DNA of 64,000 nucleotides from NCBI GenBank assembly GCA_947646415.1, contig CANSGN010000001.1, positions 3,945 to 67,944 on the forward strand, in the 5' to 3' direction. Each line of letters starts with the position of its first letter. Within the stretch, counting starts at the first letter, position 1. Origin of the DNA: an uncultured Clostridia bacterium. Lineage in GTDB: Bacteria > Bacillota > Clostridia > Christensenellales > UBA3700. The position numbers and the translations under genes were made by a program. This document shows, piece after piece, positions 39,146 through 39,595 of this stretch. The notes under the pieces were generated by a model. That model was not told the DNA's origin, made no database searches, and was given only the letters and a program-made list of their open reading frames with translations.

Positions 39146-39259
39146 ATATATAATCAAAATTTTATTTATTTTATAATCAACAAATATTGTTTATAAAAAA
39201 GAGATGAGCCTAAAGTTTTCTAAAATTTGGATGTCATCATTGTTTATAAAATAAAAAAT

Positions 39260-39299
39260 ACACCCCGAAACTTAGTGTTTTGGGGTGTTACTTTTTGTG
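39260..39299. terminator. bidirectional terminator hairpin of cassette 2
   Basis: acaccccgaaac / gttttggggtgt (39260-39288) with T-runs on both strands. It also ends the upstream GLUG lipoprotein gene. Confidence 0.75.
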
Positions 39300-39398
39300 T
39301 AAAGTTTAAAGTAGGCAAAAAGTGGTGTTCACTGCAATAATCCTATCAAAAATCGGGACTATCGGGGTTAAAAAATTGCCTTTAATGTAAAGTTTGGG

Positions 39399-39573
39399 TA
39401 CATGGAATAAGTATATCTATGTACATATTATATATATATTATAGGGTCAAAAGTAAACTTTTGTCAACGTTTAATTAAACATTTTGTAATAGCTTTACAA
39501 AAAGAGTACAAAAACTTTAAAAAACTTTTCCGAAAAACCGCGATTTTGTACATAGATATACTTATTCTATGGA
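39399..39573. promoter_or_regulatory. candidate invertible promoter segment (copy 2)
   Basis: Left IR at 39399-39425 and right IR at 39547-39573 enclose 121 bp. The right IR ends ...ctatgga, so the outer 2 nt diverge. On the minus strand, TTGACA (39467-39462), 18-nt spacer, TATAAT (39443-39438). Confidence 0.6.
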
Positions 39574-39595
39574 GAATAAAAACGGAGGTTTTATT

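Follow-up and report, generated by a model that had tools for sequence, protein, structure and literature searches.

Bacteroides, E. coli, C. difficile and M. penetrans all offer well-known examples of invertible promoters, with which the cassettes described here, from a 64,000-nt stretch of DNA (hereafter the window) of an uncultured Clostridia bacterium, share some of their features. In the fimS switch of E. coli, a 314-bp element is bounded by 9-bp inverted repeats (IRs), and the sequences adjacent to the repeats influence directionality. Our cassettes resemble fimS and its FimB/FimE recombinases in placing the promoter within a short IR-flanked invertible element, in pointing to a tyrosine recombinase and in an apparent OFF bias, whereas fimS exists at one locus only and its recombinases are encoded right beside it. 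In C. difficile the IRs differ from locus to locus, and several switches act after transcription initiation, with the promoter lying outside the element; our family, unlike these, uses one site sequence throughout, carries the promoter inside and reaches a copy number several-fold higher. The master invertase of B. fragilis, Mpi, is a serine recombinase, whereas here both the site layout and the only recombinase that we found point to a tyrosine enzyme, and the cargo consists of single dockerin genes instead of polysaccharide operons. With the C. difficile switches (flgB, cwpV, cmrRST, pdcB and others), at least the flagellar one of which is inverted by RecV, encoded elsewhere (PMC7446863, PMC9286219), the family has in common a host of the class Clostridia, several dispersed invertible elements and site-specific inversion. 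With the Bacteroides global invertase systems and gut invertons (PMC11602134, PMC11892184), it shares dispersed promoters, one IR consensus, probable control in trans and an association with surface structures, the capsular polysaccharide promoters of Bacteroides being flipped by one trans-acting recombinase according to work cited in PMC2268961.

The mpl (P35) lipoprotein genes of Mycoplasma penetrans are each equipped with an invertible promoter (Horino et al. 2003, in the summary given by PMC2268961), and the same summary names the tyrosine recombinase genes found near some members as the proposed invertases. As far as that summary describes it, mpl is like our family in being a large set of surface-protein paralogs at several loci, with short promoter-bearing invertible elements and family-wide IRs; the two are unlike in host, here a gut member of the class Clostridia, and in cargo, here secreted dockerin and beta-helix proteins in place of lipoproteins. 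The features of the cassette to be set against mpl are the 27-bp 10-7-10 sites, the 110-bp non-inverting flank with its bidirectional terminator, and the all-OFF state of the consensus assemblies. Full-text literature searches returned no description of invertible promoters controlling dockerin-bearing proteins, or of invertible promoters in this lineage. If the family works as we propose, a mouse-gut bacterium would stochastically vary more than 20 secreted beta-helix and dockerin proteins on its surface, with relevance to host or glycan adhesion and to immune and phage evasion. With its uniform sites, a candidate recombinase and a conserved flank, the system is experimentally tractable.

The cassette at 39250-39595 is very probably an invertible-promoter phase-variation switch, present here in its OFF orientation and the second of four such copies in the window. 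A sequence-only reading of this DNA had described it in these terms, and the description is supported by the IRs, by the promoter and by an inversion seen in a sister species; that copy 2 itself flips, we infer by analogy with these relatives. The limits set by that reading coincide with the envelope of the match of a 25-cassette profile to copy 2, and the components within and beside them are as follows.

39260-39288, no strand assigned: terminator hairpin (ACACCCCGAAAC-loop-GTTTTGGGGTGT) with a 12-pair stem, 6 of the pairs GC; bidirectional by sequence
39289-39398, plus strand: conserved non-inverting block of 110 bp, 98-105 of 110 positions identical among the window copies
39398-39424, plus strand: left recombination site, 27 bp, 10-7-10 (GTACATGGAA, TAAGTAT, ATCTATGTAC)
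39426-39546, no strand assigned: invertible interior, variant A, 121 bp
39438-39467, minus strand: predicted sigma-70-type promoter, TTGACA-18-TATAAT, 12/12, pointing left to the block and terminator (OFF)
39548-39574, minus strand: right recombination site, 27 bp (plus-strand reading GTACATAGAT, ATACTTA, TTCTATGGAG)
39569-39571, plus strand: spurious ATG inside the right site, without a ribosome-binding site (RBS)
39584-39588, plus strand: RBS GGAGG, 7 nt before the ATG
39596-42856, plus strand: controlled gene, encoding a secreted protein of 1086 aa in which a signal peptide and a long N-terminal region are followed by two dockerin modules at the C-terminus

The order is thus terminator, 110-bp block, left site, promoter-bearing interior, right site, AACGGAGG, 7 nt, and then the ATG with a conserved signal peptide, and AACGGAGGTTTTATTATG is invariant in all four window copies. 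A repeat search returned arms at 39401-39425 and 39547-39571, of 25 nt, 96% (24/25) complementary and 121 nt apart; the 27-nt arms first described (39399-39425 and 39547-39573) are the same repeat plus 2 nt, and the outer 2 nt of the right arm do deviate in copy 2 (ctatgGA), with no pairing there. Likewise confirmed was the minus-strand promoter, TTGACA (39467-39462), 18 nt, TATAAT (39443-39438), which agrees with the consensus at 12 of 12 positions and is directed away from the ATG at 39596; its activity is predicted from these motifs. The interior is indeed the copy 1 variant, to which it is identical at 109 of 121 positions, against only 82 of 121 for copies 3 and 4. T-runs flank the hairpin on both sides (TACTTTTTGTG on the plus strand, ATTTTTTATTTTAT on the minus strand), and by its sequence the hairpin terminates the GLUG gene upstream and would likewise stop transcription from the promoter in its OFF orientation. 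Inversion in silico moves the promoter to the plus strand (39505-39534), 61 nt upstream of the ATG, with predicted ON junctions of GTATATCTATGTACA joined to AAATCGCGGTTTTTC on the left and CCCTATAATATATATATAATA joined to TGTACATAGATATAC on the right. Upstream of the controlled gene, a consensus scan detected the RBS only and no promoter of its own, and such promoter-like sites as lie on the plus strand within or next to the cassette are all weak (9/12 consensus matches). Judged by these scans, only one of the two orientations would turn the promoter toward the gene, for which no second promoter was detected. One weak plus-strand candidate, in the block (TAGGCA-18-AATAAT with TG, 9/12), is disfavored, the TG and the final T being lost in the diverged relatives.

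Inverted half-sites around a short (6-8 bp) asymmetric spacer are the layout of tyrosine-recombinase core sites such as loxP, FRT and dif. Each arm of the present repeat, read directly from the sequence, is a 27-bp 10-7-10 site composed of GTACATrGAA, TAAGTAT and ATCTATGTAC, so that by its layout the pair would qualify as core sites of an enzyme of this type. The spacer, which the two arms of a switch share, is TAAGTAT, TAAGCAT or TACATAT depending on the species, and the half-sites are constant across species. Within the species of the window, the seventh base of the outer half-site is G on the left (GTACATG) and A on the right (CATAG) in every copy, a fixed difference that is expected if the crossover takes place in the center and the outer half-sites stay with their flanks. 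A serine invertase system of the Hin/Gin kind, which would comprise a small serine recombinase, a 26-bp 12-2-12 site and an enhancer, was considered and rejected: the symmetry here ends at 10 bp around a 7-bp asymmetric center, tblastn with Hin gave no hit in 690 kb of the clade, and the window ORFs contain no Resolvase domain. The right outer half-site of copy 2 matches the consensus at 8 of 10 positions, with two mismatches, and its GGAG right-arm variant (..CTATGGAGAAT) occurs also at L005, L016, L017, L021 and L082, which are several loci and strains. The arms of copy 3 differ in their spacers, TAAATAT on the left (window 43067) and TAAGTAT on the right, and in another sample the right arm before the same copy 3 gene carries TAAATAT (L098, 61-87); this mismatch could be the heteroduplex footprint of a past inversion, or else a lock on the switch.

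The cassette family does invert, both orientations being present among homologous members. At one locus of a sister species, sampled four times with an identical recombinase (P0002; L085, L086, L089 and L090), the contigs L089 and L090 are identical at 454 of 528 positions as assembled and at 528 of 528 once the 178-bp site-to-site element is reverse-complemented; L085 and L086 are identical to L089, and in L090 the promoter faces the gene (ON). This sole same-locus ON example is a low-coverage contig (cov 3.9). On our assumption, the k-mers typical of such assemblers probably exceed the 27 nt of the repeat, and for this reason the orientation in L090 should reflect real molecules. A second relative in the ON orientation, L048, has TTGACA-18-TATAAT directed toward the AGGAGA-ATG of a 587-aa secreted protein, with the conserved block on the other side.

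In the window's own species, every consensus assembly reports OFF. Copy 2 is OFF in the window and in L079, L082, L083 (partial) and L097, consensus assemblies in which minority orientations are invisible; copy 1 is OFF in eight independent assemblies and copy 3 in L098. Among the classifiable full switches of this species, again in consensus assemblies, 49 are OFF and none is ON, and the gene-side junctions are OFF-like in 62 of 62 cases, with none ON-like. Searches for ON copies in this species through the SSB, AgrB, copy-2 and copy-3 proteins and through IR scans returned OFF copies throughout, and the ON-junction pattern had 0 matches in JGI metagenome contigs, where the organism is present (48 loci), a count informative for consensus assemblies only. 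Overall, this species gave 0 ON in upward of 60 consensus observations, vs. 2 among about 20 in sister species. Such uniformity fits a large family whose individual loci are ON in only a small share of the cells, since a consensus assembly shows the majority state; alternatively, it could reflect a strong OFF bias or a locked state. Short-read contigs (L029, L030, L080, L081, L097, L098 and many from JGI) very often break off within a cassette or at its edge, as fits a repeat some 340 bp long that is present more than 20 times and possibly in mixed orientation, and these breaks limit what consensus assemblies show of the switch state.

No recombinase was found in the window by Pfam search of all 44 substantial ORFs, nor any Resolvase domain. 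When 690 kb of the clade were searched by tblastn with XerD, FimB and Hin, one tyrosine-recombinase-like gene came out, and the Hin query had no serine recombinase match in the same 690 kb. The gene in question (L002, 6476-7405) encodes a candidate invertase of 309 aa with Phage_int_SAM_3 and Phage_integrase domains; the R...HxxR...H...Y motifs are visible by inspection, it is intact in the metagenome-assembled genome (MAG) MGBC162486, and the closest solved structure is the catalytic domain of Tn1549 Int (E = 2.6e-19). Assignment to the Xer chromosome-dimer resolvases (XerC, XerD, XerA, XerS) was rejected, the best NCBIfam scores falling short of the curated equivalog cut-offs (72 against 220 bits for XerA, 64 against 335 for XerC), and assignment to the FimB/E family on 20.9 bits against the cut-off of 222 for the tyrosine-type DNA invertase model. 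Its orthologues, 89% and 77% identical, keep the order PI-PLC, recombinase, metallophosphoesterase, switch, family gene, and the succession from recombinase through metallophosphoesterase to switch is found in three species. The flipped locus L090 is precisely that switch, one gene away from the recombinase, and, given this conserved synteny, the tyrosine recombinase is the best candidate for the invertase; we infer that it acts in trans on the dispersed copies. L002 4350-4510, in MGBC162486, is a solo switch that has its terminator and conserved block and lacks a dockerin gene; rarA/mgsA follows about 165 bp on, and the same position in the sister species (L085-L090) holds a family gene of 787-1013 aa; judged by this gene order, the switch near the recombinase is one that has lost its cargo and now abuts rarA.

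The 25-cassette profile matches the forward strand of the window in full length at exactly four places, the number already given by the sequence-only reading. The 22-nt IR core GGAATAAGTATATCTATGTACA occurs eight times in the window, in the pairs 4945/5088, 39404/39547, 43060/43203 and 56985/57128, where 0 occurrences are expected by chance (100 shuffles), and it is identical in all of these copies but for one substitution in the left arm of copy 3. The interiors of copies 3 and 4 are identical to each other at 121 of 121 positions, the 121-bp interior length is invariant in 25 of 25 aligned switches, and the left block, 89-95% identical among the window copies, exceeds the interior in conservation. 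The proteins of the four copies, beyond the signal peptide, share only 25-44% identity over most of their length, so that a constant regulatory cassette precedes a diverging cargo. An exact pattern (arm, 112-130 nt, arm) was found 21 times, in each case with a 121-bp interior, in the uncultured Christensenellaceae MGBC162486, a mouse-gut MAG and a close relative of the window genome, not that genome itself; the contigs bearing these switches total 1.40 Mb, and the copy number per genome is at least 21. The scan covered one genome per species for 185,579 species and gave no match in the other 185,578. JGI metagenome contigs added 48 further loci, some from diverged species whose flanks differ and in which the sites, the promoter and three flank motifs are kept. 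At the copy-1 locus next to rpsF-ssb-rpsR (window 4966-5087; L010, L021-L028), strains differ in whether the interior is variant A or B, in the spacer between right site and RBS, and in the downstream gene (1002, 986, 892 or 888 aa); from these differences it follows that cassettes and cargo are exchanged among family members, by gene conversion or cassette exchange.

In the mechanism that we consider very probable, a trans-acting site-specific recombinase, most likely of the tyrosine type, would bind the 27-bp sites at 39398-39424 and 39548-39574, and strand exchange within their asymmetric 7-bp spacers would flip the 121-bp interior. In the OFF state, the promoter would fire leftward into the non-coding conserved block and be halted at the bidirectional terminator 39260-39288, so that the dockerin gene, having an RBS only, would stay silent, shielded by the same terminator from upstream read-through; in the ON state, the inverted promoter, 61 nt upstream of the ATG at 39596, would drive the gene. 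With the same switch and sites standing before at least 21 paralogous secreted dockerin and beta-helix proteins per genome, a population would vary in which surface proteins each cell makes, each locus being OFF in most cells.

An unlikely alternative is that the OFF orientation has an output of its own, a functional RNA of about 185 nt comprising the left site, the block and the terminator, so that inversion would toggle between RNA and mRNA, or the cassette would be a small-RNA gene, with a role such as feedback on the family or on the recombinase. A consensus promoter, some 150 nt of strongly conserved sequence and a T-run intrinsic terminator on the same strand do make up a complete transcription unit; the block is kept across species and exclusive to the cassettes besides being better conserved than the interior, and all loci of the window's species have the promoter pointing into it. 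Yet RNAalifold on 62 distinct copies found no consensus structure or covariation in the block, whereas that same alignment shows an invariant hairpin inside the site and a covarying terminator, single positions of which have as many as 4 pair types. The window had no Rfam family match at the gathering threshold, the predicted stem GGCAA/TTGCC of the window copy is not kept in relatives, and a structured small RNA was accordingly rejected for the block. Its conservation lies in short discrete motifs, TGTAAAGTTT at 39298-39307 and 39386-39395 (direct repeats 88 bp apart) and CAATAATCCTATCAAAAATCGGG at 39335-39357, which are retained in diverged species and, within the window, are confined to the cassettes save for a single TGTAAAGTTT outside them, at 22236; the interior contains a third TGTAAAG in inverted orientation, which the ON model turns into a direct one. 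Such a pattern is more like protein-binding DNA, and we favor a block that could hold putative accessory or synapsis sites for the recombinase, or a determinant of the OFF bias, a role as unstructured RNA being less likely; sites aiding the synapsis of an adjacent pair would matter because the genome has 40 or more identical sites. It is a speculative and rather improbable extension that the block, whether as a near-identical RNA of about 185 nt from all 20 or more silent loci or as a DNA accessory module, serves as a counting or feedback device for the whole family. Were that true, counting or feedback would leave few dockerin proteins per cell, a programmed combinatorial "variable cellulosome-like surface" in uncultured gut Clostridia, and in its DNA version the block would limit synapsis to two adjacent sites and impose the OFF bias.

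We regard as very unlikely that the switches of this species are fixed OFF, or that copy 2 alone is fixed through its mismatched outer half-site, the genes then being silent or expressed in another way. The contrast in ON counts between this species and its sisters would agree with such decay, as would the 8/10 half-site of copy 2 and the unequal spacers of copy 3. If, as expected, each locus were ON in a few percent of cases, consensus assemblies, which hide minority orientations, would give the same picture, however, and in all copies and strains selection evidently maintains the IRs, the promoter, the RBS and long intact ORFs, which is hard to reconcile with permanently silent genes; moreover, the recombinase is intact in the related MAG, and the GGAG right arm recurs at several loci and strains. 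There is a negligible chance that the element is a MITE-like non-autonomous insertion with 27-bp terminal inverted repeats that came to lie before a later-duplicated gene, or that the flipped copy is an assembly artefact. Short, multi-copy and bounded by terminal inverted repeats the element certainly is, but its position and polarity are fixed within a larger cassette that extends from terminator and block through the element to RBS and signal peptide, none occurs elsewhere in the window, no target-site duplication is found at its ends, and it is near-identical between genes of 25-44% identity. As for an artefact, L090 shows a base-exact inversion between flanks that are identical, and the repeat is probably below the typical k-mer length, as assumed above.

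Turning to the controlled gene, the two dockerins ascribed to it are present, with modules ..LGDINGDGMINASD.. at 859 and ..LGDLTGDGRITAAD.. near 1020, and the two-dockerin subfamily comprises copies 2 and 4, copies 1 and 3 carrying one dockerin-like module. Distant homologues of the cargo proteins bear Beta_helix, Chlam_PMP (PMP-repeat) or NosD domains. The ATG at 39569, suspected to be a spurious start, is in frame with that at 39596 (the ORF list gives 39569-42856) because copy 2 has GGAG where the other copies have TAAG, the equivalent ATG in these being directly followed by TAA. Public gene calls (P0121, 1095 aa) begin at the ATG 39569 and not at the RBS-preceded ATG 39596, a mis-call of the start codon of the copy 2 gene that the right-site ATG explains. 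The 1086-aa form of copy 2 has no public record, nor have the exact proteins of copies 1 and 4.

The neighborhood of copy 2 holds several further features. Just upstream of the GLUG-motif protein (37301-39145) and of copy 2 lies a complete agr-type quorum-sensing locus (window 34269-37180), with these genes:

34269-34988: LytTR response regulator
34985-36289: GHKL kinase
36358-36948: AgrB

A 49-aa ORF directly follows AgrB in L079-L084, and in L082 and L083 the GLUG gene is absent and the cassette comes directly after the agrD-like ORF. Further to the left, three tandem ORFs of 167-171 aa without a Pfam match (26470-28142) precede a 1654-aa protein that contains six Listeria-Bacteroides (Flg_new) repeats, and the region as a whole (26470-33117) may be another surface-protein locus without a switch; in L083, an IS200-type Y1 transposase stands in place of the Flg_new gene of other strains. 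GH31 TIM-barrel matches were obtained for the ORFs at 25054-26166 and 60935-62461, the former of which (370 aa, with a partial GH31 domain match) may be a fragment.
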